A DNA stretch of 64,000 bases from Zoogloea sp. (GTDB taxonomy: Bacteria; Pseudomonadota; Gammaproteobacteria; Burkholderiales; Rhodocyclaceae), in assembly GCF_009026175.1 (NCBI RefSeq), contig NZ_WBTZ01000002.1; one strand, 5' to 3'. The translations under genes were made by a program, and so were the position numbers. Positions 2,432 through 21,916 of the stretch are shown here, in pieces. The notes beneath the pieces are model-generated. The model was given only the letters and a program-made list of their open reading frames with translations, had not been told where the DNA came from and did no database searches. Positions within the stretch are counted from its first letter, which is position 1. The number at the start of each line of letters is the position of its first letter.

Positions 2432-2531
2432 TGCTGCCCAGGAAGCACTCATCAAGCAATTGCTGCTTCCTGGGAGGCGCTTTCATTCAGGTGGGCATTT
2501 GATTGGTCATCGATGTGCTTCCTGATAAGCA
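2432..2531. promoter_or_regulatory. Two TGCT-N8-AGCA palindromes (2432-2447, 2516-2531); candidate enhancer sites
   Basis: TGCTGCCCAGGAAGCA and TGCTTCCTGATAAGCA; same motif found upstream of the other sigma54 promoters. Confidence 0.65.
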
Positions 2532-2577
2532 AATGCTCTTTTCCGATAAGGCGTCCATTTCCGGAAAATGCGTCTTC

Positions 2578-3261
2578 TCAGGCAAGATCGAGAAGCGCTT
2601 CACTGGGTGCGCGCTGGCGCGGGCGGGCCTCGAGTTGCTGGCGATATTCGATGAGCTGGGCGATGGTGATGATGGGAAGTGCGTGTTCCCTGGCAAAGCG
2701 CAGCAGGTCAGGACGGCGTGCCATGGCGCCATCGTCGCGGACGATCTCACACAGCACACCGCCGGGTCGAAGGCCGGCCAGGCTCACCAGATCGTGAGCC
2801 GCCTCGGTGTGCCCCGGACGCACCAACACCCCACCCTCCCGGGCGCGCAGCGGGAAGATGTGACCGGGGCGTGCAAAATCATCAGCCTCCACGGCGGGGT
2901 CGCTCAGCGCGCGCAGGGTGGCGGCGCGGTCGGCTGCAGAGATGCCGGTGGATGTGCCATGGCGATAGTCGACGGTGATGGTGAAGGCGGTACGGTGGGA
3001 TTCCGTGTTGTCGCGCACCATCAGGGGCAAGGCCAGGGCGTCGAGGCGCGCGCCCGGCAGGGCCACGCACACCACACCGCTGCTGTGGCGGACCAGGAAG
3101 GCCATTTGTTCCGGGGTGATCTTCTCCGCGGCGATGATGAGATCGCCCTCGTTCTCACGATGGGTGTCGTCCACCACGATGACGAACTGACCGGCACGAA
3201 TGGCCGCGATGGCGTCGCTTACGCGGCCGAAGCCGGCGGCGTGATCGATGATGTTCTGCAT
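2578..3261 (-). CDS. ribB: 3,4-dihydroxy-2-butanone 4-phosphate synthase
   Basis: DD..RENEGD, VCV, TGISAADR, RPGHIFPL, RPGHTEA and CE catalytic motifs all intact. Confidence 0.93.
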   Translation of the reverse strand: MQNIIDHAAGFGRVSDAIAAIRAGQFVIVVDDTHRENEGDLIIAAEKITPEQMAFLVRHSSGVVCVALPGARLDALALPLMVRDNTESHRTAFTITVDYRHGTSTGISAADRAATLRALSDPAVEADDFARPGHIFPLRAREGGVLVRPGHTEAAHDLVSLAGLRPGGVLCEIVRDDGAMARRPDLLRFAREHALPIITIAQLIEYRQQLEARPRQRAPSEALLDLA

Positions 3262-3275
3262 GATGAAAGTTGGGT

Positions 3276-4484
3276 TCAGGAGTAGAAGGAAGGTGTCGGA
3301 TGACTGCCGTTGAGCGCCCAGTCGCCAAGCTCGCGGACCTTGTAGGCCACCGGGTCGTGCAGGGAATGGGTCCGCAGGTTGCGCCAGTAGCGGTCAAAGC
3401 GCAGGGATGCCGTGGTGGCCCGGGCCCCTGCCACCTCGAACATGCGGCTGGTCAGGTCGAGCCCGACGCGGGTGGTCGCCACCTTGGCGCTTGCCACATG
3501 CACGGCCACCTCACCACGCTCCGCTTCCTTCAGATCCAGGTCGCGGACCCAGGCGGCATCCAGCGCGTGGGCTGCCCGGTCGGTCAGCAGGCGGGCCCCC
3601 TCCACGCCGACCCAGAACTCACCGTAGGTCGACAGCACGTAGGGATCCTTGCCCGCCGAGTCGACCCCGGCGGCGGGCCAGGCCCGGCTCTGGCCCAGGG
3701 TGTAGCGGCGGGCTTCCTCGAGGGCGCCCTCGGCGATCCCCAGGTAGATGTTGGAGAGGATCAGCTGGGCGATGAGCGGACGCAGGCAGGCGAAGGGAGA
3801 GCTGAGGGGGCCCGGCTCGGCCAGCACTTCGCTGCGGGCGATGCGCACCCGGTGGAAGGCGGCACTGCCGCTGTCGGTCTGGCGTTGCCCCATGTTGTCC
3901 CAGTCCGGGAAGAGCTCGATGCCGGCGCGGTCGGTGGGGAGTGCCGCGATGATCAGCTTGCCGCTTGCCGGGTCGACCCCGGAAGCGATCAACATGTCCG
4001 AATCAATCGCCCCGGAGCAAAAGCTCTTCCTGCCATCGAACTCGAATCCGCCGTCGTCCTGGCGTGTTGCCACGGTGCGGGTGTCCAGCGGATTGAGCGC
4101 ATTCCCCCAGAACCAGTCCTTCCCGGCAGTCTGCTCGAAGAGCGGGCGCCACTGGGACGGGTTGCCAAACAGGCGAATCGTGGCCAGCAGCAGGTGCTGA
4201 AAGGCAAAGACGTGGGCGACCGAGCTGTCTGCACGGGCAATCTCACGGACGATCTGCAAGGTATCGGCCCATGTCGCCCCAAGGCCGCCCAGTTCGCGCG
4301 GCACGATCAAGCCGAGCAGGCCGCTCTGGCGCAAGGCATCGCGTTCGGCCTTCGGGGTTCCACCGGTCTTGTCGCGCTCGACGGCGCTTTGAGCGAAGTG
4401 CTCGGCCAGTGCGCGGGCGATCGCCAGCGGGCTGGCGGCGGCACGGGCGTACTTCGCCTCCGGGACTTCTAGCAGGCTGTGCAT
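3276..4484 (-). CDS. Acyl-CoA dehydrogenase-fold flavin-dependent monooxygenase (DszC/SfnA-like)
   Basis: [42 protein letters not shown] and [14 protein letters not shown] motifs. Confidence 0.88.
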   Translation of the reverse strand: MHSLLEVPEAKYARAAASPLAIARALAEHFAQSAVERDKTGGTPKAERDALRQSGLLGLIVPRELGGLGATWADTLQIVREIARADSSVAHVFAFQHLLLATIRLFGNPSQWRPLFEQTAGKDWFWGNALNPLDTRTVATRQDDGGFEFDGRKSFCSGAIDSDMLIASGVDPASGKLIIAALPTDRAGIELFPDWDNMGQRQTDSGSAAFHRVRIARSEVLAEPGPLSSPFACLRPLIAQLILSNIYLGIAEGALEEARRYTLGQSRAWPAAGVDSAGKDPYVLSTYGEFWVGVEGARLLTDRAAHALDAAWVRDLDLKEAERGEVAVHVASAKVATTRVGLDLTSRMFEVAGARATTASLRFDRYWRNLRTHSLHDPVAYKVRELGDWALNGSHPTPSFYS

Positions 4485-4567
4485 GGTGTTCTTTCTGTTG
4501 TGAGCATGTCGGTTGGCATGAGCACGCGGCGGGTGTGGGACCGCGATACAGCGCTCTGCCCGTCTTC

Positions 4568-4583
4568 AGCAGATTGCGTGCCA
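4568..4583 (-). promoter_or_regulatory. Sigma54 promoter for monooxygenase-ribB operon
   Basis: Minus strand TGGCACGCAATCTGCT; 84 bp upstream of ATG 4484. Confidence 0.85.
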
Positions 4584-4624
4584 CTGCCGGAGTCCGTCAA
4601 AAGACGGCCCGATGCCTGCGCACA

Positions 4625-4817
4625 TGCCTTTCCATGAGCAGCGCTGCGGATGTAGTGCTTGTAGAGCAGCACCTCATGCGGATGAACAGCGAAAGCCATG
4701 TCAAATCCGTGAGAGGGCACTGGTCAGCGGGTGGTCTGGCCCTGAACTGCTCCCCGGCAAGCACAACTGCCCGGCTTTTGCTGCGCATGTAGCAATGAAG
4801 ATGCTGCCTGGCCAGCA
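4625..4817. promoter_or_regulatory. Cluster of TGCT-N8-AGCA sites between divergent sigma54 promoters
   Basis: Perfect sites at 4656-4671, 4748-4763, 4779-4794 and 4802-4817; one-mismatch site at 4625-4640. Confidence 0.75.
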
Positions 4818-4846
4818 GAACGTTGCTCCCGGGTACGTTTTGGGTA

Positions 4847-4862
4847 TGGCACGCTTTCTGCA
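4847..4862 (+). promoter_or_regulatory. Sigma54 promoter for monooxygenase-sfnR-ribB-like operon
   Basis: TGGCACGCTTTCTGCA. Confidence 0.85.
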
Positions 4863-4900
4863 GAGGGTCTCCGTGTCACCCTGATCGCGGAGCCTTTGCC

Positions 4901-6111
4901 TTGACCCAAGTCTTGAACACGCTGCTCGACCTGCCCGGCGGCACGGTTTCACCGGAACCTCCTGAGCAGATCGCCCGGCGCCTCGCCGAACAATTCGCTG
5001 CCACGGCGGCCGAGCGGGATAGCCTGGGCGGAACGCCCAAGGCGGAGCGGGATGCGCTGCGCCAGAGCGGGCTGCTGGCCCTGTCCATTCCAGTCGAGTA
5101 CGGTGGCCTGGGCGCAAACTGGCGCGAGACCCTGGATGTCGTGCGCATCCTGTCCAGCGCAGACAGCTCCATCGGACATGTCTTCGCCTTCCAGCATCTC
5201 ATGTTGGCAACGGTGAGGCTCTTTTCCCGGCCGAGCCAGTGGGAAGCCTGGTTCGAGCAGACGGCCCGCCACAACTGGTTCTGGGGGAATGCCGTCAATC
5301 CGCTGGACCGTCGCACCGTCAGCCGGAGCCAGGACGGCTGGTACGAGTTTTCCGGGAAGAAGAGCTTCTGCTCCGGTGCGCTCGATTCAGAGATGCTGGT
5401 TGTTTCAGCCTATGCCCAGGACACGCCGCAACAGCTCGTCATCGCCGCGGTGCCGACCGCCCGCAGCGGCATCAACGTGTTGCAGGACTGGGACAATTTC
5501 GGCCAGCGGCAGACCGACAGTGGCAGCGTGAATTTCGAAAGGGTGCGCATCGAGGAGAAGGAGATCCTCGCCGATCCGGGACCGCTGAGCACGCCCTTTG
5601 CCTGCCTGCGCCCGCTCATTGCGCAGCTCATCCTCACCAACATCTACGCCGGCATTGCCGAGGGTGCCTACACGGAGGCCCGTCGCTACAGCCTCCATGA
5701 GGCACGGCCCTGGCATCGCTCCCCGGCCAAGCGTTTCGAGGACGACCCCTATGTGCTGCATCACTACGGAGAGTTCTGGGCGGCGCTCGACGCGGTGCGG
5801 GTGATGACCAACCGGGCGGCGGACCTGCTTGACGCGGGCTGGAACAAGGGAGGGCGCCTGACCGAGGACGAGCGGGGAGACATTGCGCTGGCGATCTCCT
5901 CGGCCAAGGTGCTGGCGACGCGGACAGGGATGGACCTCTGTACGCGCATGTTCGAGGTGACGGGCGCACGTGCCACCCATGCCGGGCTGGGGCTCGACCG
6001 CTATTGGCGCAATCTGCGCACGCACACCATGCACGACCCGATCGATTACAAACTTCTGGAGCTAGGTGAATGGGCCTTGAAGCAACACTACCCGAAGCCG
6101 ACTTTCTACTC

Positions 6112-6115
<4 letters not shown>
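4901..6115 (+). CDS. Acyl-CoA dehydrogenase-fold flavin-dependent monooxygenase (DszC/SfnA-like), paralog of 3276-4484
   Basis: [33 protein letters not shown] and [14 protein letters not shown] motifs; TTG start at 4901 after GGAG, since the ORF-track start lies upstream of the promoter. Confidence 0.88.
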
Positions 6116-7272
<1,157 letters not shown>

Positions 7273-7324
7273 ATGGCCCGAAGCGGCCACTCTCTTGATA
7301 ACCCCCAGACATGAATGGTGCGAC

Positions 7325-7948: not shown

Positions 7949-8004
7949 GTGACTGCTCCTGCTGGTAACTCTCCTCCGCGCGGGGGGGACCCGGTCCTTT
8001 CATC

Positions 8005-8032
8005 AGGCGCCTGCTATGGCGCCTTTTTATTT
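8005..8032 (+). terminator. Rho-independent terminator
   Basis: AGGCGCC-TGCTAT-GGCGCCT followed by TTTTATTT. Confidence 0.75.
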
Positions 8033-8060
8033 GTTGAGAGTGCTTCCCCATGCCACGGGT

Positions 8061-8076
8061 TGCTGCCTCAAAAGCA
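8061..8076. promoter_or_regulatory. TGCT-N8-AGCA site
   Basis: TGCTGCCTCAAAAGCA, 80 bp upstream of the sigma54 promoter. Confidence 0.65.
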
Positions 8077-8156
8077 CTTGTCCAGCATGGGTGTGTCTGG
8101 GCCCGCAACAAGCACCGGATTCAGCAATATACAAAAGGGGATTTTGGCGAAAATCC

Positions 8157-8172
8157 TGGCCCGCTTTATGCT
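8157..8172 (+). promoter_or_regulatory. Sigma54 promoter for ABC operon 1
   Basis: TGGCCCGCTTTATGCT with correct GG/GC spacing. Confidence 0.7.
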
Positions 8173-8298: not shown

Positions 8299-9450
8299 AT
8301 GCACACCTTGAACAAGGCCCTTTCCTCCAGCAATAGCCCCGACACGCTGCCGGCCCATTTGTGCGAGCAGGCGCGACTGCAGCCCCGGACTGTCGCCCTG
8401 CGCTTCAAACGGCTGGGCATCTGGCACGAGAAGCGCTGGCCGGATCTGCTCGCCGAGGTGGCAGGCGCAGCCGCGGCGCTGCAGACCGACGGTTTCGGCA
8501 ATGGAGACGTGCTGGCCTTGCTTGGCCAGCCCTCGCCCGAGGCCGTGGTCATGTTGCTGGCCGCCCAATGGCTGGGAGGTGTCGTTGCCCCCCTCGCTCT
8601 GGATGCCGAACCCGAGGCCCTGGCGTCGGCGCTCATCGGACTGCGGCCCTGCATCGCCTTTGGCGACGACCAGGAGCAGGTGGATCGCCTGCTGGCGGCG
8701 GGCTTCTCCGGCAAGAGGCTGATCTATGCCGATGCCCGCGGCCTGCATGCCTACCGGCAGACGGTGTTGGCCAGTTACGGTGAGTGGCTGGCAGCTGCGC
8801 CCGACGGGTCTGCGTACCCACACTGCGTGGCCCGGGATGTTGCGCTGCGCTACCACGTCGCAGGTGGGTGGGACGACGGGCCGGTGTGCCGCATCACCCA
8901 CGCCGAGATCCTGGACGGCGCCCGCCGGCTGATCGCGGCAAGCGGGCTGAACGTCGGTGAGGAGGCTTTCGCCGGGAGGCGTTTTGCGCCGGCGGGCGTG
9001 GTTCGCTACCTGCTCGCCCCCTGGTTGCTTGCAGGCTTCACCCTCAATATCGCCGAAAGCCCGGAGAGCCGCGATCCGGATCGACGGGAGATCGGCCCGA
9101 GCCTGATCCTCGGATCGGCCGAGACCTACGCCCGGCTGCGCAGCCGGATCCAGGCCCGTCTGCCGGCTTCCCGGGACGGTTGGCGCGGACGCCTGGTGTC
9201 TGCGGCGCTCCACTCCCGGAGTGGGCTTTTGGCGCGCATCCTGGTGCGGCGCCCCCTGGCCGAGGTGGCCGGGCTGGGCCGGGTGCGTCACGCCCTGGTG
9301 GTCGGCCCGGCGCCGGATGCCGACCTGACCGAGTTCTTTGCCCGTCTGGGCGTGAGCCTGAGACGCTGGCCGGACGCGGCCTGCCTGCCGCAGAACAGGC
9401 CGCCCGAGCATGATCTGGCCAGCCTCCTGAACGTATGGGTGGCGCCATGA
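8299..9450 (+). CDS. Truncated, degenerate long-chain acyl-CoA ligase-like (AMP-binding fold) protein
   Basis: N-terminus VALRFKRLGIWHEKRW and ESPESRDPDRREIGP are typical of ABC-associated ligases; the P-loop region reads YHVAGGWDDG instead of YTSGTTGxPKG; ends where the YGxTE motif should be; 383 aa. Confidence 0.75.
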   Translation: MHTLNKALSSSNSPDTLPAHLCEQARLQPRTVALRFKRLGIWHEKRWPDLLAEVAGAAAALQTDGFGNGDVLALLGQPSPEAVVMLLAAQWLGGVVAPLALDAEPEALASALIGLRPCIAFGDDQEQVDRLLAAGFSGKRLIYADARGLHAYRQTVLASYGEWLAAAPDGSAYPHCVARDVALRYHVAGGWDDGPVCRITHAEILDGARRLIAASGLNVGEEAFAGRRFAPAGVVRYLLAPWLLAGFTLNIAESPESRDPDRREIGPSLILGSAETYARLRSRIQARLPASRDGWRGRLVSAALHSRSGLLARILVRRPLAEVAGLGRVRHALVVGPAPDADLTEFFARLGVSLRRWPDAACLPQNRPPEHDLASLLNVWVAP

Positions 9451-10229
9451 GTGCGTTATCCGCCTCAGCACTATTGCTGGCGGTCGAACACGTGTCCCTG
9501 TCCTTTGGCGGCGTCAAGGCGGTCACCGACATCTCCTTCTCGGTCCCGCGTGGCGAGATCTGCGCCCTGATCGGCCCCAATGGTGCCGGCAAGAGCTCCC
9601 TGCTCAATGTGATCAACGGGGTCTATCGGCCGCAGGGCGGGCGCGTGGTGTACGACGGCCTGGTGACCTCCCGATCGGCCCCTCGCCAGGCAGCCCTCGG
9701 AGGCATCGCGCGAACCTTCCAGAACGTGGCCTTGTTCAAGGGCATGAGCGTGCTCGACAACGTGCTGACCGGCCGCAACGTGCGGGTCGGGGCGGGTTGG
9801 ATCGAGCAGGTGCTGGGCCTGCCCCGCGCCCGCGCCGAGGCGGATCTGCATCGGCACAGGGCCGAGGAAATCCTGGCCTTCCTGCACATCCAGGCGCATC
9901 GCGACACACCTGTCGGCAAGCTGCCCTACGGTCTGCAGAAGCGTGTCGAACTGGCCCGGGCCATCGCCTCAGAGCCACAACTGCTCCTCCTCGACGAGCC
10001 GATGGCCGGCATGAACCTCGAGGAGAAGATGGACATGAGCTGCTTCATCCTCGACATCAACCGCGACCTGGGGACCACGGTGGTCCTCATCGAGCACGAC
10101 CTGGGCGTGGTGATGGACATTTCAGACCACGTGGTGGTGCTCGATTACGGCCGCAAGATCGCCGACGGCCCGCCGGCCCGGGTACGCGACGATCCGCAGG
10201 TCATCGCCGCCTACATCGGCGCCCACTGA
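9447..10229 (+). CDS. LIV-type ABC transporter ATPase (LivG-like)
   Basis: GPNGAGKS, LPYGLQKRVELARA and LLDEP motifs; ATGA overlap with the upstream gene. Confidence 0.93.
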   Translation: MSALSASALLLAVEHVSLSFGGVKAVTDISFSVPRGEICALIGPNGAGKSSLLNVINGVYRPQGGRVVYDGLVTSRSAPRQAALGGIARTFQNVALFKGMSVLDNVLTGRNVRVGAGWIEQVLGLPRARAEADLHRHRAEEILAFLHIQAHRDTPVGKLPYGLQKRVELARAIASEPQLLLLDEPMAGMNLEEKMDMSCFILDINRDLGTTVVLIEHDLGVVMDISDHVVVLDYGRKIADGPPARVRDDPQVIAAYIGAH

Positions 10230-10245
10230 ACGCTGGAGTCAAGAC

Positions 10246-11127
10246 ATGGATTTTTTTCTCGAAGTGCTGATCGGCGGCCTCCTGGCCGGGATCATGTATT
10301 CAATGGTGGCGATCGGCTTTGTACTGATCTATAAGGCCTCGGGGGTGTTCAATTTCGCCCAGGGGTCGATGGTGCTGTTTGCCGCCCTGACCTTCGTCAG
10401 CCTTGTGGAGCGGGGCTTCGCCTTCTGGAGTGCCTTCGCCACCACCCTCGGGGCAATGCTGGCCCTCGCCTGGGCGATCGAGCGTGGGGTCTTGCGCCCC
10501 CTCGTCAATCGGCCGCCCATCACGCTCTTCATGGCGACCCTGGGGGTCAGCTTCATCATCGAAGGCCTGGCTCAGCTCCTGTGGGGTGCCCAGGTGCACG
10601 GCCTCGAACTGGGCATCAAGGATGAGCCCATCGATCTTGGCGGCATTCTGCTGTCCCGCTTCGATCTCTTCGCGGCCGGCATAGCCGCGCTGCTGGTGCT
10701 GGCCTTGTCCCTGCTGTTCTCGCGGACCCGCATCGGCCTGTCCCTGCGTTCGGTCGCCAGCGACCCCTTGGCTGCGCTGGCCACGGGTATCCGCGTGCAG
10801 CGCATCTGGGCCGTGGTCTGGGCAGTTGCCGGCTTTGTCGGGCTGATCGCCGGACTGCTCTGGGGCGCCCGTCTCGGAGTCCAGTTCTCACTTTCCCTGG
10901 TCGTCCTGAAGGCCTTGCCGGTGCTGATCATCGGCGGCTTCTCGTCGATCGGCGGCGCCATCGTCGGCGGGCTGATCGTCGGCGCCGGGGAGAAGCTGGC
11001 CGAGGTGTATGCCGGCCCGGTGATCGGCGATGGCCTCGAGAACTGGTTTCCCTATGTGCTCGCGCTGCTTTTCCTGCTGGTACGTCCTGCGGGCCTGTTC
11101 GGCCAGCGCACCATCGAGAGGGTCTGA
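10246..11127 (+). CDS. LIV-type ABC permease (LivH-like)
   Basis: GFVLIYKASGVFNFAQG; hydrophobic multi-TM protein. Confidence 0.92.
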   Translation: MDFFLEVLIGGLLAGIMYSMVAIGFVLIYKASGVFNFAQGSMVLFAALTFVSLVERGFAFWSAFATTLGAMLALAWAIERGVLRPLVNRPPITLFMATLGVSFIIEGLAQLLWGAQVHGLELGIKDEPIDLGGILLSRFDLFAAGIAALLVLALSLLFSRTRIGLSLRSVASDPLAALATGIRVQRIWAVVWAVAGFVGLIAGLLWGARLGVQFSLSLVVLKALPVLIIGGFSSIGGAIVGGLIVGAGEKLAEVYAGPVIGDGLENWFPYVLALLFLLVRPAGLFGQRTIERV

Positions 11128-11129
11128 TC

Positions 11130-12197: not shown

Positions 12198-12305
12198 GCC
12201 TTCCCTTACCTCAACCTGATCCCTGTCATGGAACGGCCTGGCCAGCCGATCCAGGGCAGCTCACGGGGCTACGCCCCCCAATCATCCCCACAGGAGTCTT
12301 GCTTC

Positions 12306-13643
12306 ATGACCACATCGCGCTTTTCCCCGCGCCGCCTGACGGCCGCTTTCAGCCTCGGCCTTGCGCTTGTCAGCGGCAGCGCCACAGCCGCCGGCGAGCA
12401 GTATTTTCCCCTGCAAAGCTACCGGGTCGGCCCCTACGCAGCCGGCGGCACCGGCTTCTTCGGTGGTTTCATCGACTACATGCAGCTCGTCAATGCCCGT
12501 GATGGCGGGGTCAATGGCGTCAAGCTCACCTGGTCCGAATGCGAGACCGAGTATGTCGTCGAAAAGGGGGTTGAATGCTACGAGCGCCTGAAGAAGGGGC
12601 TCAACGGTGCGCCGGCAGCCGCCACCAACCCGCTCAGCGTCGGCATCGCCTACGCAACCCTGGAACGCTCCACCGCCGACCGGATTCCGCTGATCACCAT
12701 CAACCACGGGCGCACCGACTCGACCGACGGCAGCGTCTTCCCCTACGTCTTCCCCTTGCAGCTCAATCCCTACAGCGAGGTGTCGGCGATCGTCAATTAC
12801 ATCGGCCAGCGGGAAGGTGGTCTCGACAAGCTGAAGGGCAAGAAGATCGTGACGCTCTATCACGGGTCGCCCTACGGCAAGGAAACCATCCCCATCCTGG
12901 ACATCCTGTCGAAGAAATACGGTTTCGCCATCAGTCACATCGAAGTTCCCCACCCGGGCACCGAGCAGCAATCCCAGTGGCTCAACATCCGCCGCATCAA
13001 GCCTGACTGGGTGATTCTGCGGGGTTGGGGGGTGATGAACCCGGTGGCGCTGAAGACCGCCGCGAAGACCGGCTTTCCGGCCGACCATGTGATCGGCAAC
13101 ATCTGGAGCAACTCCGAAGACGACGCCGCACCTGCGGGCGATGCCGCCAAGGGCTTCATCTCCATCACCACCCACCCGGCCGGCACGGATTTCCCGGTGC
13201 TCAAGGACATCGAGAAGGTGGTGGTCAAGGCCGGCAAGGGCAATCTCCAGGATCCCAAGCGCTTCGGCAGTGTCTATTACAACCTGGGCGTGGTGAACGG
13301 CATCCTCAACGTCGAGGCGCTACGGATTGCCCAAGCCAAGTTCGGCAAACGGCCGCTCAGTGGTGAGGAAGTACGCTGGGGCTTCGAGCATCTCAAGCTT
13401 GATGCCAAACGCCTGCAGGATCTCGGCGCGACCGGCCTGGTCCAGACCCTCACGCTCTCCTGCTCCGATCACGAGGGCGGTGGTGCCGTGCGCTTTCAGC
13501 AATGGGATGGAGCCAGCTGGAAGGTGATCAGCGACTGGGTGCAGGCAGACCGCGGCCTGCTGCGTCCGATCATCGAGAAATCCGCTGCGGCCTACGCCAA
13601 GGAAAAGGGCATCACCCCGCGCAACTGCGCCAAGGAGAGCTGA
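12306..13643 (+). CDS. LIV-type ABC substrate-binding protein (PBP1 family)
   Basis: Signal peptide ending ATA-A; YRVGPYAAGG...DGGVNGVKL..ECETEY; start set at ATG 12306 after GGAG. Confidence 0.9.
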   Translation: MTTSRFSPRRLTAAFSLGLALVSGSATAAGEQYFPLQSYRVGPYAAGGTGFFGGFIDYMQLVNARDGGVNGVKLTWSECETEYVVEKGVECYERLKKGLNGAPAAATNPLSVGIAYATLERSTADRIPLITINHGRTDSTDGSVFPYVFPLQLNPYSEVSAIVNYIGQREGGLDKLKGKKIVTLYHGSPYGKETIPILDILSKKYGFAISHIEVPHPGTEQQSQWLNIRRIKPDWVILRGWGVMNPVALKTAAKTGFPADHVIGNIWSNSEDDAAPAGDAAKGFISITTHPAGTDFPVLKDIEKVVVKAGKGNLQDPKRFGSVYYNLGVVNGILNVEALRIAQAKFGKRPLSGEEVRWGFEHLKLDAKRLQDLGATGLVQTLTLSCSDHEGGGAVRFQQWDGASWKVISDWVQADRGLLRPIIEKSAAAYAKEKGITPRNCAKES

Positions 13644-13702
13644 AATCAAACGTCCGCGCAGGCTGCAAGGCCTGCGCCCACATCAACAACGGACTCTTGC
13701 CC

Positions 13703-14509
13703 ATGACGACTTCCTCCATCCTCCGAGTCGATAACATCCACGTGATCTACGACCAGGTGATCCTCGGCGCCCGCGGCATCAGCCTTGAGCTGCCGGAGGG
13801 ACGCATCCATGCCCTGCTCGGCGCCAATGGCGCCGGCAAGACGACGACGCTCAAGGCCATCTCGGGTCTGATCAGGGCCGAGCGTGGCGAAGTGACCTGC
13901 GGCAGCATCCATTTTGCCGGTCATGATGTGCTCAAGAGTGATCCGGCGGCACTGGTGAGCCAGGGGCTGGTGCAGGTCCTGGAGGGGCGCCATTGCTTCG
14001 CCGAGCTTGATGTGGACGAGAACCTGCGGGTCGGCGCCTTTGTGCGCACCCCCTCCCGCGCTGATCTGCGCCGGGGGCTGGAACGCATCTACACCTACTT
14101 TCCGCGCCTCGCCGAGCGACGCCGGAGTCGCGCCGGTTATCTGTCGGGCGGTGAGCAGCAGATGCTGGCCATCGGACGTGCGTTGATCGCCTCCCCCCGC
14201 CTGGTCCTGCTCGACGAACCGTCCATGGGGCTTGCCCCGCAGATCGTCATCGAGATCTTCGAGATCGTGCGCCGCCTCAACCATGAGGAAGGAGTGAGCT
14301 TCCTGCTCGCGGAACAGAATGCGGCGATCGCCCTTCGCTATTCGGATCACGCCCATATCCTGGAGAACGGCCGCATCGCGGGTAGCGGTCCTTCCGCCGA
14401 ACTGGCCGAGCGGGACGATGTACGGGCTTCCTATCTGGGAATCGGCGCCGAGGGCCGCCGCAGTTTTCGTGAAGCCAGGCATTACCATAGCCGCCGCCGC
14501 GAACATTGA
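13703..14509 (+). CDS. LIV-type ABC ATPase (LivF-like)
   Basis: GANGAGKT, LSGGEQQMLAIGRAL and LDEPSMGLAP motifs. Confidence 0.92.
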   Translation: MTTSSILRVDNIHVIYDQVILGARGISLELPEGRIHALLGANGAGKTTTLKAISGLIRAERGEVTCGSIHFAGHDVLKSDPAALVSQGLVQVLEGRHCFAELDVDENLRVGAFVRTPSRADLRRGLERIYTYFPRLAERRRSRAGYLSGGEQQMLAIGRALIASPRLVLLDEPSMGLAPQIVIEIFEIVRRLNHEEGVSFLLAEQNAAIALRYSDHAHILENGRIAGSGPSAELAERDDVRASYLGIGAEGRRSFREARHYHSRRREH

Positions 14510-14631: not shown

Positions 14632-14647
14632 TGCTGGAACAGAGGCA
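14632..14647. promoter_or_regulatory. One-mismatch TGCT-N8-AGCA site
   Basis: TGCTGGAACAGAGGCA; a weaker partner TGCC-N8-CGCA lies at 14664-14679. Confidence 0.45.
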
Positions 14648-14739
14648 TGCAAATAGCAGGCTATGCCTCCATGGCCGCATCCGGAATGTCTTGATCAGCT
14701 TTCAAGGCCACTTTCTCCCTAGTTTTTCATTATTTGCCC

Positions 14740-14755
14740 TGGCACGCGAACTGCT
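14740..14755 (+). promoter_or_regulatory. Sigma54 promoter for porin-ABC operon 2
   Basis: TGGCACGCGAACTGCT. Confidence 0.85.
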
Positions 14756-14792: not shown

Positions 14793-15920
14793 ATGAAAAA
14801 TACCAACGTCCTTGCCCTGCTTCTTGTTGCAGCGAGCACGTCCGTCCTGGCGCAGAGCAATGTCACCATTTTCGGCACCGTCGACATGGGCTACCGCTGG
14901 AGCGACAGGAACGTCGATCCCCGCATCGGCAGCCAGTCACGCACCGACTCGGGAACCAGCGTGCCCAGCCGGCTTGGTTTCCAGGGGATCGAGGACATCG
15001 GCAATGGGCTCAAGGCCAGCTTCATCCTTGAAGCCGCCATCGATACCTCCACCGGTGAATTGCCGGGTGGGGGTGGATTCAGCCGCCAGGCCTTTGTTGC
15101 CTTGGGGGGCGCGTTCGGGAAGGTGGCACTGGGGCGGCAATACACGCCCGGCTACTTATTCACTTCCGAGGTCGATCCTTTTGGTAGCGTCACTGTCGGT
15201 CAATATAACAATGTGTACCTGACCGAATACCGCTGGAACAATCAGATCACTTATTTCTCTCCCGAGAAGGAAGGCCTCTCCTTCTCTGCGGCTTATTCCC
15301 TGAACGGCTACGGGCAGGAGTCCATCGGTAATCGGGGCAATGGCACGACCGGCGATGTGGAGGCGCTATCGGTGCAGCCTCAGTACCGCAAGGGTCCGCT
15401 TCTGGTGGGCGCGCACTTTCAGGAATTGCGCTCGCGCAGCACGGGCCGGGACGATGCCGGCAATGTGCTGACGGCCACTTACGACGGCAAGAAGATCAGG
15501 GCCTACGACGTGGGTGCGACCTACGACCTCGGCGTTGCGAAGCTGGCTGCGCTATACGGCATCCGTCGCTCCGACAGCGCCGATTTCAGCCCCGACACGG
15601 GTGCCAGCACGGTCAAGGACAGCCGCCAGTGGTTGCTCGGCGCGACCTTGCCGCTTGGGGCAGATGGCAAGCTGCTTGCCTCTTACGTGCGCCGCAGCAG
15701 CGAGCTTGCGTCCGGCCACGGCGATGCCAAGGCTGGTCAGTGGGCGCTCGGCTACGAACATGCCTTGTCCAGACGCACGGTTCTCTACACCACCTACGCC
15801 AGCGTCAATAACAACGGGGTGGGCCGTGATGCGGGCTTCGTGAGTTCTGTTGGTGCGGGGTACAACCCAGGCAATGGCTACCAACGCAGTGCTGCGGTCG
15901 GCATCCGTCATTCCTTCTGA
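14793..15920 (+). CDS. Gram-negative (betaproteobacterial) trimeric porin
   Basis: Signal peptide VLA-Q; SNVTIFGTVD, SRLGFQGIEDIGNGLKASFILE and YEHALSRRT motifs; C-terminal GIRHSF. Confidence 0.9.
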   Translation: MKNTNVLALLLVAASTSVLAQSNVTIFGTVDMGYRWSDRNVDPRIGSQSRTDSGTSVPSRLGFQGIEDIGNGLKASFILEAAIDTSTGELPGGGGFSRQAFVALGGAFGKVALGRQYTPGYLFTSEVDPFGSVTVGQYNNVYLTEYRWNNQITYFSPEKEGLSFSAAYSLNGYGQESIGNRGNGTTGDVEALSVQPQYRKGPLLVGAHFQELRSRSTGRDDAGNVLTATYDGKKIRAYDVGATYDLGVAKLAALYGIRRSDSADFSPDTGASTVKDSRQWLLGATLPLGADGKLLASYVRRSSELASGHGDAKAGQWALGYEHALSRRTVLYTTYASVNNNGVGRDAGFVSSVGAGYNPGNGYQRSAAVGIRHSF

Positions 15921-15939
15921 GCCCTGGGAGGATCACGCG

Positions 15940-16866
15940 ATGAACCAGCGACTGCCTGTGGCGAGCGATCCAGTGGGCCACCTCGATACCTGGGCAGCGG
16001 CGCGTCCCGGAGCCCTGGCACTGCTGCACAAGCGTCGGGGGCGCTGGATGGCCTGGCGTTGGGCGGACGTCCGTCGCGAAGTGGCCGAGCTGAGCGCCGC
16101 CCTCGCCGCCCGTGGCTTCGGTCCGGGTGAGCGGCTGGCCTTGGCGGGCCCGTTCGAGCCCACCCTGGTCCTGCTGGCGCTGGGCGCCCGGAACGCCGGC
16201 GGCGAGGTGGTAGCGGTTTCTCCGGACCTGTCCGGCCAGGCCCTGCTCGATGGCCTCTCTGCAGCGGGCGCGCACCATCTCTTCGTGGCCAGCCGCGACG
16301 GGGCAAGCCGTGCCATTGCGGCCTATGCAGGCGCCCGGGCAGCACCGCGCCTGTACCTGCGCGAAGCGCCGGCGCAGCGCAGCGCCGGCTTGTCCGTGAC
16401 CCCGATCGCGGAACTGTTCGGAGAGCCCCGCCCCATGCCGGAACGTATCGAATGGGATCGGCTGCGCAGCAGCCGCAGTGCGTGGGTCGAGGAAGGCAGT
16501 GAATGGGCTGAGGGGCTCGGCCTGATCCTCGAGCGCCTCCTCACCCACGGGCAAGCCTTCGCTTTTCCTGAAAATGCGGAATCCGCGTCTCGCGACCGGT
16601 GCGACATCGCCCCCGTCATGCTGCTGCTGTCGGCGGCCCGGGCCGGTGCGCTTCACGACAAACTCGACCAGCGCCTGGCCCCCTCTGGCAGCCTGGGCCG
16701 CCGCCTGTGGGACTGGGCCCAGCGTCATGCCGGACGGCCCGGAGCCCATCGGCATCTGCGCTCCCATGTACGCCGGATTGCCGGCTTGCATCGGGTGCGC
16801 GCAGTCGAGCCCGCTGCGCTTGTCGCCTCGGCATGGCTGGGCACAGGCCGGGAGGAGCTGCCATGA
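15940..16866 (+). CDS. Second truncated, degenerate acyl-CoA ligase-like protein
   Basis: LALLHKRRGRWMAWRWADVRREVAELSAAL N-terminus and FAFPENAESASRDRCDIAP; no recognisable P-loop; 308 aa; ATGA overlap with the ATPase gene. Confidence 0.7.
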   Translation: MNQRLPVASDPVGHLDTWAAARPGALALLHKRRGRWMAWRWADVRREVAELSAALAARGFGPGERLALAGPFEPTLVLLALGARNAGGEVVAVSPDLSGQALLDGLSAAGAHHLFVASRDGASRAIAAYAGARAAPRLYLREAPAQRSAGLSVTPIAELFGEPRPMPERIEWDRLRSSRSAWVEEGSEWAEGLGLILERLLTHGQAFAFPENAESASRDRCDIAPVMLLLSAARAGALHDKLDQRLAPSGSLGRRLWDWAQRHAGRPGAHRHLRSHVRRIAGLHRVRAVEPAALVASAWLGTGREELP

Positions 16867-17666
16867 ACGCGCCCCAAGCGGCCGATCCGATTCTGGAAGT
16901 TCAGGATGTTTCCTTGTCCTTCAAGGGTGTAAAGGCGATTTCAGGGCTCAGCTTCGTGGTGCGGCGGGGCGAGATCTGCGCCCTGATCGGCCCCAACGGA
17001 GCGGGCAAGAGTTCCCTGCTCAACGTGCTTAACGGGGTGTACAGGCCGGATTCCGGCGAGCTTGTCTTCGAGGGCATCCACTACCGGGGGATCACCCCGC
17101 TGGAGGCCGCCCGCCGGGGCATTGGCAGAACCTTCCAGAACAACGCTCTGTTCAAGCGCATGGGTGTTCTCGACAACGTGCTGTCGGGGCTGTCCCGGCA
17201 TGCCCGGACGGGCTTTTTCGCCCAGGCCTTGGGCCTGCCTGCCGCCCGCGGCGAAGCCCGCGCCTTTCGCGAGCTGGCGGAGCACACCCTGGAGTTCCTT
17301 GAGCTCCAGGCCTGGCGGGATACGCCGGTGGGCAGCCTGGCCTATGGCCTGCAGAAACGGGTCGAACTGGGCCGTGCCTTGATCGCCGGGCCACGCCTCC
17401 TGTTGCTCGACGAGCCGATGGCCGGCATGAACGCCGATGAAAAGCGCGAGATGAGCCGCTTCGTCACGGAGATCAACCGCAGCTTCGGGACCACCGTGGT
17501 GTTGATCGAGCACGACATCGGGGTGGTGATGGGCCTCTCGGCCCACGTGGTGGTGCTCGATTACGGGCGCAAGGTCGGCGACGGCACGCCGGCCGAGGTG
17601 AAGGCCAATCCGGACGTCATTGCGGCTTATCTGGGAGCCGTCCAACAAGAGGGCGCAAGAACATGA
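16863..17666 (+). CDS. LIV-type ABC ATPase (LivG-like)
   Basis: GPNGAGKS and LAYGLQKRVELGRAL motifs. Confidence 0.93.
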   Translation: MNAPQAADPILEVQDVSLSFKGVKAISGLSFVVRRGEICALIGPNGAGKSSLLNVLNGVYRPDSGELVFEGIHYRGITPLEAARRGIGRTFQNNALFKRMGVLDNVLSGLSRHARTGFFAQALGLPAARGEARAFRELAEHTLEFLELQAWRDTPVGSLAYGLQKRVELGRALIAGPRLLLLDEPMAGMNADEKREMSRFVTEINRSFGTTVVLIEHDIGVVMGLSAHVVVLDYGRKVGDGTPAEVKANPDVIAAYLGAVQQEGART

Positions 17667-18544
17667 ATTTTTTCCTCGAGACCCTCATCGGTGGCCTGCT
17701 TGCCGGGACAATGTACTCGCTGGTGGCGATCGGCTTCGTGCTGATCTACAAGGCCAGCGGGGTATTCAACTTTGCCCAGGGCGCCATGTTGCTGTTCGCG
17801 GCCTTGAACTGCGTCAGCCTGCAGGAGGCCGGCCTGCCCTTCCCCGCTGCAGTGTTGGCAAGCGTGTCGATCATGATCGTGCTGGCCCTGGCGATCGAGC
17901 GTGCGGTGCTGCGCCCATTGGTCGGGCGCTCGCAGATCACCCTGTTCATGGCCACCCTGGGCCTGAGCTTCATAATCGAGGGACTGGCCCAGGGGCTCAT
18001 GGGCGCTGAGGTCCGCGCCCTCGACCTCGGCATCGAGGACGTCCCGATCACCATCGGCGACATCATGGTGAGCCAGTTCGACCTGTTCGCGGCGGCCACC
18101 GCGGGGATCCTCGTGCTGGTGCTGGCGCTGCTCTTCAACAAGACGCGGATCGGCGTGTCGCTGCGGGCTGTGGCCGACGATACCCGCGCGGCCCTGTCGA
18201 TCGGCATCAACCTCAATCGTATCTGGCAGATCGTCTGGGCCGTGGCCGGCATCGTCGGTCTGGTTGCCGGCCTCTTGTGGGGCGCGCGCCAAGGTGTCCA
18301 GTTCGCCCTCTCCCTGGTGGTCCTCAAGGCGCTGCCGGTGCTGATCATCGGCGGCTTCACCTCCATCGGCGGGGCCATCGCCGGCGGGCTCATCGTCGGT
18401 GCCGCGGAGAACCTTGCCGAGGTCTACGCCGGCCCCTTGCTGGGCGGCGGGATCACGCCATGGTTTGCCTATTTCCTTGCGCTGGCCTTCCTTTATGTGC
18501 GGCCCGCCGGGCTCTTCGGCGAACGCGCCATCGAAAGGGTGTGA
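17663..18544 (+). CDS. LIV-type ABC permease (LivH-like)
   Basis: Paralog of 10246-11127. Confidence 0.92.
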   Translation: MNFFLETLIGGLLAGTMYSLVAIGFVLIYKASGVFNFAQGAMLLFAALNCVSLQEAGLPFPAAVLASVSIMIVLALAIERAVLRPLVGRSQITLFMATLGLSFIIEGLAQGLMGAEVRALDLGIEDVPITIGDIMVSQFDLFAAATAGILVLVLALLFNKTRIGVSLRAVADDTRAALSIGINLNRIWQIVWAVAGIVGLVAGLLWGARQGVQFALSLVVLKALPVLIIGGFTSIGGAIAGGLIVGAAENLAEVYAGPLLGGGITPWFAYFLALAFLYVRPAGLFGERAIERV

Positions 18545-18547
18545 AGC

Positions 18548-19624
18548 ATGTCGAGTCAATCCCAGCCTCTCTCCCCGTCTTTCTCCCGGCCCTTCGAGCA
18601 CGCTTTGCTCGAGGTTGCCGCCCGGCCCTTTCCGTGGGGCCCTGGCGCCCTTCTTGTGGTGGCTTTCGGCCTGCTGCCCTGGCTCGCCGATGACTATTGG
18701 CTCAACGCGATCCTGATTCCCTTCCTGGTGCTGTCCCTGGCCGGGTTGGGACTCAATCTGCTGACCGGCTACACCGGGCAGACCTCGGTCGGTTCGGCCG
18801 GCTTCATGGCGGTGGGGGCCTTTGCGACCTATGCCTTCCTGCTGCGCGTGCCAGCCCTGCCCTTGCCCCTGGCTTTGCTTGCCGGGGGCGCCATCGCAGC
18901 GGGCGCGGGCTTTGTCTTCGGCATTCCGAGCAAGCGCATCAAGGGCTTCTACCTGATGGTGACCACGCTGGCGGCGCAGTTCTTCCTGGAATGGGTGTTC
19001 ACCAAGTTTCCGTGGTTCTACAACCATGCTTCGTCCGGAACCATTTCCGCTCCCCGGCTGGAGGTGTTCGGTCATGACATTTCGGGGCCCGGTGGGCGCT
19101 ATGTGTTGACGCTGTCGGTGGTGGCGCTGCTGACCTGGATCGCCCATAACCTGGTGCGTGGCCAGGTGGGGCGCAACTGGACGGCGATCCGCGACATGGA
19201 TACCGCGGCGGCCGTGATCGGCATCGAGGTGGACCGCTACAAGCGGCTGGCTTTCGCGGTGAGCAGCTTCTACCTCGGGATCGCCGGTGCCCTGTGGACC
19301 TTTGCCTACCTCGGCACGGCAAGCGCCAGCAGCTTCGATATCAATCGATCCTTCCAGATCCTCTTCATCATCATCATCGGCGGCATGGGCAGCATTGCCG
19401 GCAACTTCATCGGTGCCGCCTTCATCAGCCTGCTGCCCCTCTTCCTGAGCCAGGCGGGCCAGGCCCTGCTGGGCAGCAGTGTCGATCCGGGCCAGATCCA
19501 GAACCTCCAGAAGATCATTTTCGGGGCTTTGATCATCGCCTTCCTGATCAAGGAACCCGAAGGCCTGGCCCGCATGTTGCGGCGCTTCGCCGCGCGCCTG
19601 GCGGTCTGGCCCCTGCGCTTCTGA
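18548..19624 (+). CDS. LIV-type ABC permease (LivM-like)
   Basis: Paralog of 11130-12197. Confidence 0.92.
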   Translation: MSSQSQPLSPSFSRPFEHALLEVAARPFPWGPGALLVVAFGLLPWLADDYWLNAILIPFLVLSLAGLGLNLLTGYTGQTSVGSAGFMAVGAFATYAFLLRVPALPLPLALLAGGAIAAGAGFVFGIPSKRIKGFYLMVTTLAAQFFLEWVFTKFPWFYNHASSGTISAPRLEVFGHDISGPGGRYVLTLSVVALLTWIAHNLVRGQVGRNWTAIRDMDTAAAVIGIEVDRYKRLAFAVSSFYLGIAGALWTFAYLGTASASSFDINRSFQILFIIIIGGMGSIAGNFIGAAFISLLPLFLSQAGQALLGSSVDPGQIQNLQKIIFGALIIAFLIKEPEGLARMLRRFAARLAVWPLRF

Positions 19625-19686
19625 AACACCGTTGTATTGAACCCTCCGTTCCCGTCTTCATTTGCCCCCTGACTAGAGAAACGAAA

Positions 19687-21015
19687 ATGCGCAACATCCT
19701 CAAGCGAACCGTCCTGGCAGCCACCCTGGCCGCCGCCCTCATGGGCACAGCTCCGGTGACCCAGGCTGCAACCAACGAGCAGTTCATCCCCCTGCCGACC
19801 TATCGGGTGGGCCCCTATGCGTCCAGTGGCATTCCCTGGTGGGCCGGGGTGATCGACTATCTGCGCTATATCAACGAGGTAGAGGGCGGCGTCGACGGCG
19901 TCAAGCTGGTGTGGAAAGAGTGCGAGACCGAGTGGAGCACCGATCGCATCGTCGAATGCTACGAGCGCTACAAGAAGGGCTACAACGGTGCTCCCACGGC
20001 CTTCTTCTTCACCCACAGCACACCGGCCTCCTACGCCCTGATGGACAAGGGTGTCGCCGACCGCATTCCGCTGGTCGACCCGGCGGGCGGGCGCACCGAA
20101 TCCACCGATGGCAGTGTCTTCCCCTACGCATTCCCACTGCTGCTCAACTACTACAGCCAGGCCTCGGTGGGTATCAATTACATCGCCCAGAAGGAAGGTG
20201 GCTTCGAGAAGCTCAAGGGCAAGAAGATCGTCACGGTATTCCATGATTCCGCCTATGGCCGTGAGACCCAGGCACCGATGGAGTTGCTGGCGAAGAAGTA
20301 CGGTTTCGAGAACATCCAGATTCCGGTGGCCGACCCCGGTAATGAACAGTCGGCCCAATGGCGCCAGGTTCGCCAGATCAAGCCCGATTGGGTCTTCCTG
20401 CGCACGTGGGGGGTGTCGACGCCGGTCGGCATCAAGACTGCCGCCCGCTTCGGAATACCCGTGGATCGCCTCATTGGTGATGTGTGGGCCGGCTCGGAGG
20501 CGGATGTGCTGCCTGCCGGTGCGGCCGCCAAGGGCTACCAGGCCTTGGCGCCCTTCCCCGGCGGGGCCGACTTTGAAATCCACAGGCGCCTGCGGAAGTT
20601 CATCCTCGACGCTGGCAAGAGCGACCTCAAGGATCCAAAGTTCTTTGGCAGCGTGTACTACAACATTGGTCTGATCAACGCGGCCATGGCCGTGGAAGCC
20701 TTGCGCACGGGCCACCGGAAGTTCGGTAATCGTCCGCTCAACGGGGAGGAAGGTGGCTGGGCCTTCGAGCACCTCGACATCAGCGACGCCCGATTGAAGG
20801 AAATCGGCTTCTTCGGCCTGCTCCAGAAACTCAAGCTGTCGTGCAACGAGCATGAGGGCGGCGGTGCCGCACGGGTCCAGCAGTGGGACGGGAAGAAGTG
20901 GGTCCTGGTGACAGACTGGGTCCAGGCCGACCGGAAGGCCCTGCGCCCGTTGATCGATGCCAAGGCCGCGGCCTACGCCCGGGAGAAGAACATCAAGCCG
21001 CGCGATTGCAGCTAA
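19687..21015 (+). CDS. LIV-type ABC substrate-binding protein
   Basis: Signal peptide ending TQA-A; paralog of 12306-13643; ATG 19687. Confidence 0.9.
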   Translation: MRNILKRTVLAATLAAALMGTAPVTQAATNEQFIPLPTYRVGPYASSGIPWWAGVIDYLRYINEVEGGVDGVKLVWKECETEWSTDRIVECYERYKKGYNGAPTAFFFTHSTPASYALMDKGVADRIPLVDPAGGRTESTDGSVFPYAFPLLLNYYSQASVGINYIAQKEGGFEKLKGKKIVTVFHDSAYGRETQAPMELLAKKYGFENIQIPVADPGNEQSAQWRQVRQIKPDWVFLRTWGVSTPVGIKTAARFGIPVDRLIGDVWAGSEADVLPAGAAAKGYQALAPFPGGADFEIHRRLRKFILDAGKSDLKDPKFFGSVYYNIGLINAAMAVEALRTGHRKFGNRPLNGEEGGWAFEHLDISDARLKEIGFFGLLQKLKLSCNEHEGGGAARVQQWDGKKWVLVTDWVQADRKALRPLIDAKAAAYAREKNIKPRDCS

Positions 21016-21088
21016 GAGACGCAAGCCTCAACGGGGCACCCCACCTGGCGGAGCCCCGGGCATTCCATTCTTCCTTTCCGGAGTTCTC

Positions 21089-21865
21089 ATGGCGATATCC
21101 GTACCTTCCATTGCTGAGCCCCCTGATCTGCTCGTGGTGGACGACATCGAGGTCGTCTACGACGGGGCCATCCTGGCCGTAAGCGGCATCTCGCTGAAAG
21201 TCGCTGATGGGGCCATCGTGGCCTTGCTCGGTGCCAACGGTGCCGGCAAGAGCACGACCCTCAAGGCGGTTTCCGGCATCGTCCAGGCTGATCGCGCGCG
21301 CATCAGCCGGGGGTGCATCCATTTCGACGGCCGGGATGTCACCGGTCTGGCCCCCAATCTCCTGGCGCACCAGGGCGTCGTCCATGTGCTCGAGGGGCGG
21401 CATGTGTTTCCCCAACTCAGCGTAGAGGACAACCTGCGCAGCGGCGGCTTTCTGCGCAAGCTCGGGCGGCGGGAGATGAATGCCGCGCTGGAGCGTATCT
21501 ACGCCTGGCTTCCCCGCCTCAAGGTCAAGCGCCAGACCGCGGCCGGGCTGACCTCGGGGGGCGAGCAGCAGATGCTGGCGCTCGGACGTGCCCTGATGAC
21601 GGGGCCACGCCTGGTGCTGCTCGATGAGCCTTCGATGGGCCTGGCCCCCATTCTCGTGGAAGAGATCTTCGGGATCATCAGCCACCTGAATGCCAGCGAG
21701 AACATCGGCTTCGTGGTCGCCGAGCAGAACGTCAACGTCGCCCTGCGCCACGCCCATTACGGCTACGTCATCGAGAACGGCCGGGTGGTCGACGAAGGGC
21801 CGGCTCAACGCCTTGCCGAACAAGAAAACATCCATCACTACTACCTTGGCGGCACAGTCGCCTAG
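21089..21865 (+). CDS. LIV-type ABC ATPase (LivF-like)
   Basis: GANGAGKS and TSGGEQQMLALGRAL motifs; ATG 21089 after GGAG. Confidence 0.92.
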   Translation: MAISVPSIAEPPDLLVVDDIEVVYDGAILAVSGISLKVADGAIVALLGANGAGKSTTLKAVSGIVQADRARISRGCIHFDGRDVTGLAPNLLAHQGVVHVLEGRHVFPQLSVEDNLRSGGFLRKLGRREMNAALERIYAWLPRLKVKRQTAAGLTSGGEQQMLALGRALMTGPRLVLLDEPSMGLAPILVEEIFGIISHLNASENIGFVVAEQNVNVALRHAHYGYVIENGRVVDEGPAQRLAEQENIHHYYLGGTVA

Positions 21866-21869
21866 GGGG

Positions 21870-21916
21870 TGCTGCCCTGTCAGCGCCCTATCCGCAGCCC
21901 TGCTCCTTCATCAGCA
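21870..21916. promoter_or_regulatory. Pair of TGCT-N8-AGCA sites 31 bp apart
   Basis: TGCTGCCCTGTCAGCG (21870, one mismatch) and TGCTCCTTCATCAGCA (21901). Confidence 0.65.

Follow-up and report, generated by a model that had tools for sequence, protein, structure and literature searches.

The first 24 kb of a 64,000-nucleotide stretch of the genome of Zoogloea sp. (contig NZ_WBTZ01000002.1 of RefSeq assembly GCF_009026175.1; the whole stretch is called the window below) hold an organosulfur-scavenging cluster in which copies of a palindromic element, TGCT-N8-AGCA, stand in front of sigma-54 (-24/-12) promoters. The cluster includes msuE, which encodes a flavin mononucleotide (FMN) reductase, and sfnG, which encodes a dimethylsulfone monooxygenase 93% identical to SfnG of Zoogloea sp. 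LCSB751, as well as two genes for SfnB-type proteins, two LIV-type importers, a porin gene, a gene for a monooxygenase of the NtaA/DmoA family, and sfnR (Table 1). The sfnR product is a sigma-54 activator, that is, it has an AAA+ domain with the GAFTGA motif and a C-terminal helix-turn-helix, and it is without a recognisable N-terminal sensor domain; the genome also encodes sigma-54, with rpoN on contig C293. A first-pass annotation of the window had proposed that TGCT-N8-AGCA is the binding site of this activator and could define its regulon genome-wide.

The eight perfect and three one-mismatch copies listed by the first-pass annotation are all present in the window, and the three pairs that it had described as spaced exactly 31 bp (4625/4656, 4748/4779 and 21870/21901) are correct as well. 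Six -24/-12 promoters, each facing a gene, can be read from the sequence, and all 11 sites are 45-247 bp upstream of at least one of them. The whole window holds nine perfect copies, whereas 100 dinucleotide-preserving shuffles of it gave a mean of 0.87 and a maximum of 3. The ninth copy, TGCTGGCGGAGCAGCA at 35979-35994, lies within a gene for a protein of 1148 amino acids (33989-37432) and scores 19.6 with the position weight matrix (PWM) described below; we take it as a coding coincidence.

The background had been estimated at one match per ~100 kb, which is too low, as the genome holds 187 matches in 5.44 Mb, or about one per 29 kb. The motif is this frequent because CTG/CAG-rich coding sequence makes spacings of 2, 5, 8, 11 and so on all common, and counts across spacings show the 3-base periodicity of coding DNA. 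Intergenic DNA gives a different picture. True intergenic DNA was defined as gaps of no more than 1.5 kb between genes, using a codon-likelihood caller whose genes cover 84% of the genome, and in the resulting 455 kb the N8 spacing has 16 matches and other spacings have 5-12 each. Half of the 16 fall within the 1.64 kb of intergenic DNA of the cluster, where ~0.03 would be expected, and outside the cluster there is about one copy per 57 kb. The N8 count outside the cluster is no higher than this background, and the enrichment is thus real and local. Large gene-free stretches on contigs C171, C86, C187 and C265 were left out of the intergenic set; their sequence is probably of foreign origin, with unusual codon usage, and not intergenic. 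One of them, C171:606-35489 (~35 kb), contains zero genes according to the codon-usage caller and several motif matches.

Sites pooled from this genome and from five congeners give a fuller consensus, TGCTGCCyrGGCAGCA, a palindrome of 16 bp, and so the eight central positions are not random. A PWM was made from the congener sites alone; it gives the window sites 12.5-23 bits, with the best score in the window (23.0) at site 2432 and the weakest among the perfect sites (12.5) at site 4779. In a set that covers the window, the locus on contig C119 described below and the betaproteobacterial loci, 32 of 35 distances between adjacent sites come within 2.6 bp of an integral number of 10.5-bp turns, against an expectation of about half, and the mode is 30-32 bp; orthologous pairs in this set are not independent, and no probability value is attached to it. 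The element thus combines dyad symmetry with several copies on the same face of the helix.

The same arrangement recurs in the genus. In the five other sfnG-bearing Zoogloea genomes the motif comes in pairs with a spacing of 31-32, 52-53 or 84 bp, which precede the sigma-54 promoters of the orthologous msuE-sfnG, sfnB-like/sfnR, dszC-like and porin operons and also those of an ssuD/msuD-like gene and of an ssuACBD operon. When the upstream regions of msuE, of the divergent genes, of the importer and of the porin gene are aligned among congeners, the palindromes and the -24/-12 boxes stand out as conserved blocks and the rest has diverged. Four congeners have sequence at the position of site 2432, and in each of them a site is aligned with it; its pairing with site 2516, 84 bp away, is also present in congener G013, the closest of them. 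The one-mismatch sites 4625 and 14632 are at positionally conserved sites: at 4625 the right half and the position are kept in G013, and at the position of 14632, aligned in four genomes, G001 has a perfect copy, the present genome (G000) and G002 have one mismatch each, and G013 has two.

A comparison beyond the genus used 80 sfnG loci from named genomes, each scanned over 280 bp upstream from whichever sigma-54 promoter was closest to sfnG or the reductase gene. All 14 betaproteobacterial loci with a promoter (from Zoogloea, Thauera, Aquitalea, Methylobacillus, Methylophilus, Burkholderia and Paraburkholderia) carry TGCT-N8-AGCA and one carries TGTT-N8-AACA, whereas among the 51 Pseudomonas loci with a promoter the counts are 2 and 45, respectively. 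The commonest site start is the same in both groups, 98-104 bp before TGGCAC, with the Pseudomonas mode at -101. In P. aeruginosa there are only two TGTY-N8-RACA matches in 9 kb, and these are 31 bp apart and lie ~102 and ~71 bp before the TGGCAC of sfnG. The layout, a sigma-54 promoter with upstream sites before an FMN reductase-sfnG operon, is therefore shared by the 14 betaproteobacterial and the 51 Pseudomonas loci, but the recognition sequence is not the same: the consensus dyads, TGCTGCC..GGCAGCA and TGTTGCC..GGCAACA in Pseudomonas, differ solely in the third base of each half-site.

The SfnR orthologs of the two groups differ in the helix-turn-helix too, along the same line as the motif. 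Its sequence is NQ(V/I)(Q/R)AA.LLG(V/I)SRNV(I/L/M)RARLI in the TGCT group and NQVHTA.LLGLSRN(V/I)TR(T/S).LI in Pseudomonas, and loci of Moraxellaceae and Methylobacillus agree with the same split between Gammaproteobacteria and Betaproteobacteria. On balance we favour the view that there has been a clean one-base change of specificity within the SfnR family, between TGTTGCC in Pseudomonas and TGCTGCC in Betaproteobacteria, accompanied by a few helix-turn-helix residues (Q/R-A-A against H-T-A in the first helix, and I/L/M-R-A against T-R-T/S in the recognition helix), with the geometry frozen (a 16-bp dyad, a position near -101 and 31-bp pairs) and with two Zoogloea paralogs that appear to share the TGCT-type site. 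The novelty lies in the TGCT form of the site in Betaproteobacteria, which co-varies with the DNA-binding helix of the regulator. A full-text literature search returned citing papers in which the SfnR motif is absent, the primary papers on SfnR binding being beyond the reach of that search.

We read the TGCT-N8-AGCA elements as upstream activating sequences, predicted from sequence comparison to be bound by dimers of the SfnR-type activator and possibly also by those of its C119 paralog, and we put the probability of this at roughly 85%. This reading is the best one because the sites form conserved islands at a fixed distance from the promoter, have an equivalent in Pseudomonas and change together with the helix-turn-helix of SfnR. 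The attribution made by the first-pass annotation therefore stands as far as a predicted site is concerned, with the second paralog as another candidate binder. In kind, the motif is probably nothing new but an ordinary enhancer of a known regulator family; we infer that SfnR binds and activates here, and that sulfur starvation is the signal.

The steps of a mechanism can be drawn by analogy with activators of the NtrC class. SfnR dimers would bind the dyads, and two or more sites on one face of the helix, mostly 30-32 bp apart, would favour the assembly of the AAA+ domains into an active ring. A DNA loop would bring this ring to the sigma-54 RNA polymerase at a -24/-12 promoter 45-250 bp downstream, where ATP hydrolysis would lead to promoter opening. 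One regulator could in this way switch on the whole cluster: msuE-sfnG and the genes downstream, the dszC-like gene and ribB, the sfnB-like gene and sfnR, the two LIV-type importers with the porin, and the NtaA/DmoA-type monooxygenase. As a sigma-54 promoter with sites also precedes the sfnR operon, positive autoregulation is implied, unlike in P. putida, where sfnECR is said to be activated by CysB and repressed by SfnR. The circuit might first be triggered by the paralog or, as in P. putida, from a promoter that depends on CysB.

Several observations weigh against assigning the sites to SfnR in this manner. Sites 4748 and 4779 are not conserved in G013; their ~100/70 geometry is the same as that at the sfnB-like/sfnR promoter of four other congeners. 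The whole arrangement of 21870, 21901 and the promoter at 21957 is likewise not conserved in the closest congener, the congeners lack this arrangement, and the promoter fits just 9 of 12 consensus positions. As a class, one-mismatch copies are only mildly enriched in the window (45 against 27 expected) and not statistically distinctive on their own, so that the support for these sites is in position and conservation and not in counts. Three sites, at 45-68 bp from the -24 element, are nearer to it than is usual for activator sites and may work on the opposite promoter or in another way. The core of the binding site of integration host factor (IHF; WATCAANNNNTTR, at most one mismatch) was not found in any site-to-promoter spacer, and looping would therefore need intrinsic bending or another protein. 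Three of the spacers are AT-rich (49-52% A+T against ~35% in the genome). An SfnR-like protein of Acinetobacter has an I instead of a T in its recognition helix despite TGTT-type palindromes at its locus, and the co-variation is therefore not reducible to one residue. Finally, both SfnR-like paralogs of this genome adjoin TGCT-type sites.

The paralog is encoded at C119:10042-11079 and is 59.6% identical to the window SfnR. Its gene diverges from a sigma-54 promoter with three sites in tandem before it (at 11194, 11214 and 11237; two perfect, one with one mismatch), which are spaced 20 and 23 bp and lie 121, 101 and 78 bp upstream of the promoter. The gene downstream of this promoter begins at 11485 with a signal-peptide sequence and is truncated where the contig stops. 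A conserved sequence upstream of the paralog in three congeners, TGCTCGCCCAGCAGCA, was rejected as a site; it is inside a binding-protein gene.

That the paralog and not the window SfnR is the main binder of the sites in the cluster, or that both share them, as SfnR1 and SfnR2 might in P. aeruginosa, is an unlikely explanation, for which its own tandem sites, a recognition helix (ISRNVLRTHL) close to that of the window SfnR, and the side-by-side position of both SfnR-type genes in other Zoogloea genomes can be cited. In Burkholderia, Paraburkholderia and G013, however, the fetched locus has a single SfnR-type gene and yet the motif is upstream of sfnG. Moreover, it is the window SfnR that is the ortholog of the SfnR-like proteins whose genes adjoin sfnG in Pseudomonas, Burkholderia and Paraburkholderia (identity of 62-67% along almost the entire protein), against 55-60% for the clade of the paralog. 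The domain matches of the window protein are to Sigma54_activat and AAA_lid, and full-length NtrC/NifA models align up to its C-terminus; Pfam HTH_8 was not reported at E<=1e-5, and NCBIfam has no curated hidden Markov model specific to SfnR.

It is far less probable that the palindromes are operators of another family near sigma-54 promoters, either a LysR-type regulator such as CysB or SsuR, or the Rrf2-family regulator at C50:4712-5254. CysB-family control is usual for sulfur-starvation genes, and the Rrf2-type gene terminates the gene string that runs from msuE-sfnG to ssuD. However, the position relative to the -24 element is fixed at ~-101 from Pseudomonas to Zoogloea, phased pairs at 30-32 bp are typical of sigma-54 activators, and the change of motif tracks the SfnR helix-turn-helix; in addition, a 16-bp TGC-N10-GCA dyad is incompatible with the T-N11-A box of LysR, and the Pseudomonas loci have equivalent sites without an adjacent Rrf2 gene. 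A chance origin from base composition or from CTG/CAG-rich sequence, which the commonness of the pattern in coding DNA and the coding copy at 35979 might suggest, is refuted by the shuffles, by the intergenic counts and by the conservation of the sites across genera.

The genome-wide search that had been proposed, in which the motif was combined with a sigma-54 scan, added with confidence only the C119 locus. Among 109 oriented intergenic sigma-54 candidates in the genome, seven have the motif within 300 bp upstream, and four of the seven belong to the cluster. Sigma-54 promoters thus do not carry the motif in general, and the predicted regulon amounts in essence to the cluster and one further locus. 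An SMP-30-like gene (C123), an amidase gene (C173) and genes for TonB receptors (C97 and C110) also have the motif with a sigma-54-like box. These are single sites with no link to sulfur and no conservation, and were rejected as background. The best match to the consensus in the genome, TGCTGCCCAGGCAGCA at C243:3198-3213, has convergent genes on either side and no sigma-54 promoter in its vicinity; it may be a terminator-type hairpin or chance.

Table 1. Genes, sigma-54 promoters and proposed enhancer sites of the cluster and of the C119 locus; coordinates are window positions unless a contig is named.
Feature	Coordinates	Strand	Sequence	Remarks
sfnG, dimethylsulfone monooxygenase	480-1580	minus		
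msuE, FMN reductase	1623-2198	minus		
ribB	2578-3261	minus		
dszC-like, DszC/SfnB-type flavoprotein	3276-4484	minus		
sfnB-like, second SfnB-type gene	4913-6115	plus		
sfnR	6112-7272	plus		alternative start possible, ATG at 6070
Degenerate RibB-like gene	to 7948	plus		
Importer operon 1: AMP-binding-like gene and LIV-type ABC importer	8299-14509	plus		
Porin gene	14793-15920	plus		
Importer operon 2: second AMP-binding-like gene and importer	15973-21865	plus		
NtaA/DmoA-family monooxygenase gene	22066-23481	plus		
Promoter	2269-2284	minus	TGGCACGGAAGCTGCT	drives msuE, sfnG and sulfur genes past the window start; conserved in 6 genomes
Promoter	4568-4583	minus	TGGCACGCAATCTGCT	drives dszC-like gene and ribB; conserved in G013
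Promoter	4847-4862	plus	TGGCACGCTTTCTGCA	drives sfnB-like gene, sfnR and degenerate RibB-like gene; conserved in G013
Promoter	8157-8172	plus	TGGCCCGCTTTATGCT	drives AMP-binding-like gene and LIV-type importer; aligned with CTGGAACAGTTTCTGCT in G013
Promoter	14740-14755	plus	TGGCACGCGAACTGCT	drives porin gene, probably importer operon 2; conserved in 4 genomes
Promoter, weaker	21957-21972	plus	TGGCATGCTTCCTGCG	drives NtaA/DmoA-family monooxygenase gene
Enhancer site	2432-2447		TGCTGCCCAGGAAGCA	163 bp upstream of msuE-sfnG promoter
Enhancer site	2516-2531		TGCTTCCTGATAAGCA	247 bp upstream of msuE-sfnG promoter; 84 bp (8 turns) from 2432
One-mismatch site	4625-4640		TGCCTTTCCATGAGCA	31 bp from 4656; PWM score <10
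Enhancer site	4656-4671		TGCTTGTAGAGCAGCA	88 bp upstream of (-) dszC-like promoter; perfect site also in G013
Enhancer site	4748-4763		TGCTCCCCGGCAAGCA	99 bp upstream of (+) sfnB-like/sfnR promoter
Enhancer site	4779-4794		TGCTGCGCATGTAGCA	68 bp upstream of (+) promoter; 31 bp from 4748
Enhancer site	4802-4817		TGCTGCCTGGCCAGCA	45 bp upstream of (+) promoter, 234 bp upstream of (-) promoter; perfect site also in G013
Enhancer site	8061-8076		TGCTGCCTCAAAAGCA	96 bp upstream of importer operon 1 promoter; conserved in G013
One-mismatch site	14632-14647		TGCTGGAACAGAGGCA	108 bp upstream of porin promoter
One-mismatch site	21870-21885		TGCTGCCCTGTCAGCG	31 bp from 21901; PWM score 11.9
Enhancer site	21901-21916		TGCTCCTTCATCAGCA	56 bp upstream of monooxygenase promoter; PWM score 17.2
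Paralog locus	C119:10042-11600		TGGCACGGGCTGTGCA	paralog divergent to sigma-54 promoter at 11315, whose sequence is given

The minus-strand genes continue past sfnG (window 1-446, C50:4712-11135) with two further SfnB/acyl-CoA-dehydrogenase-like genes, followed in the same string by genes for a pyridoxal phosphate enzyme of Cys/Met metabolism, SsuD, an amidohydrolase and then the Rrf2-family regulator. Between these genes there is no perfect intergenic TGCT-N8-AGCA, and so the promoter at 2284 may drive a long operon. Between the porin enhancer site and its promoter there is an inverted repeat, GAGGCAT-N12-ATGCCTC (7 bp; 14650-14675), which overlaps the right end of the one-mismatch site. A further sigma-54-like box, CGGCACCCGAATTGCT at 40081-40096, fits 10 of 12 consensus positions upstream of a gene for 1115 amino acids (40264-43608) and is without a nearby TGCT-N8-AGCA; if real, it belongs to another activator.

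Two further features of the gene content emerge from comparison with other genomes. Short AMP-binding-like genes stand before both LIV-type importers of the window (8299-9450 and 15973-16866). As the Pseudomonas fluorescens group has a 386-amino-acid AMP-binding gene in the equivalent place, directly after sfnF-sfnG and ahead of the same importer genes (L045/L046 5113-6273), the short gene is not a local remnant, and it looks like a conserved component of this LIV-type importer family. In G013 the degenerate RibB-like gene is followed by a sequence like GTP cyclohydrolase II (RibA; L033 ~16900-17630, aligned to window position 7949) that is absent from the window, from which the RibB-like gene of the window may be the remnant of a ribBA fusion without its RibA half.

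The closest known system is that of Pseudomonas, where SfnR and SfnR2 have reportedly been established by experiment as direct activators of sfnFG and sfnG (P. putida DS1 and P. aeruginosa PAO1), with SfnR reportedly binding upstream of sfnA as well. The Zoogloea system is like it in having an orthologous activator without a recognisable sensor domain, a target operon of FMN reductase and sfnG genes behind a sigma-54 promoter, 16-bp palindromes ~101 bp before TGGCAC with pairs 30-31 bp apart, and an accessory AMP-binding-like gene with a LIV-type importer. It differs in the third base of the half-site, C in place of T, with a helix-turn-helix that differs to match, and in its larger cluster with six promoters, a porin gene and a duplicated importer.

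Two better-known enhancers share parts of this design. At glnAp2 of enteric bacteria, NtrC binds two strong dyad sites that are separated by three turns (~32 bp), lie some 100-140 bp before the -24/-12 promoter and promote oligomer assembly; these too are dyad sites for a dimeric Fis-type helix-turn-helix, and the mode of the Zoogloea-type spacings, 30-32 bp, is the same. The NtrC site itself is different, TGCACC-N5-GGTGCA over 17 bp, and NtrC has a phosphorylated receiver domain whereas the window SfnR has no receiver. The upstream activating sequence of NifA, a protein with a GAF domain that controls nif genes, is TGT-N10-ACA and has the same 16-bp geometry. The Pseudomonas TGTT-N8-AACA formally satisfies it, but the TGC-N10-GCA of Zoogloea and the other Betaproteobacteria does not.

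The finding involves no new mechanism. It provides a candidate operator for a sulfur-scavenging regulon (dimethylsulfone, alkanesulfonates and unknown organosulfur compounds) in Zoogloea and in other Betaproteobacteria that are common in activated sludge. With the motif, uncharacterised genes can be assigned to the predicted sulfur-starvation response, namely those for the porin, the LIV-type importers with their AMP-binding-like partners, the degenerate RibB-like protein and the NtaA/DmoA-type monooxygenase. The split between TGCT and TGTT lineages, with a matching change in the helix of the regulator, is a natural experiment on recognition of DNA by an activator. If the change of specificity is true, it would offer a system, testable by swaps, for how a Fis-type helix-turn-helix reads DNA and for how paralogs partition or share a regulon.

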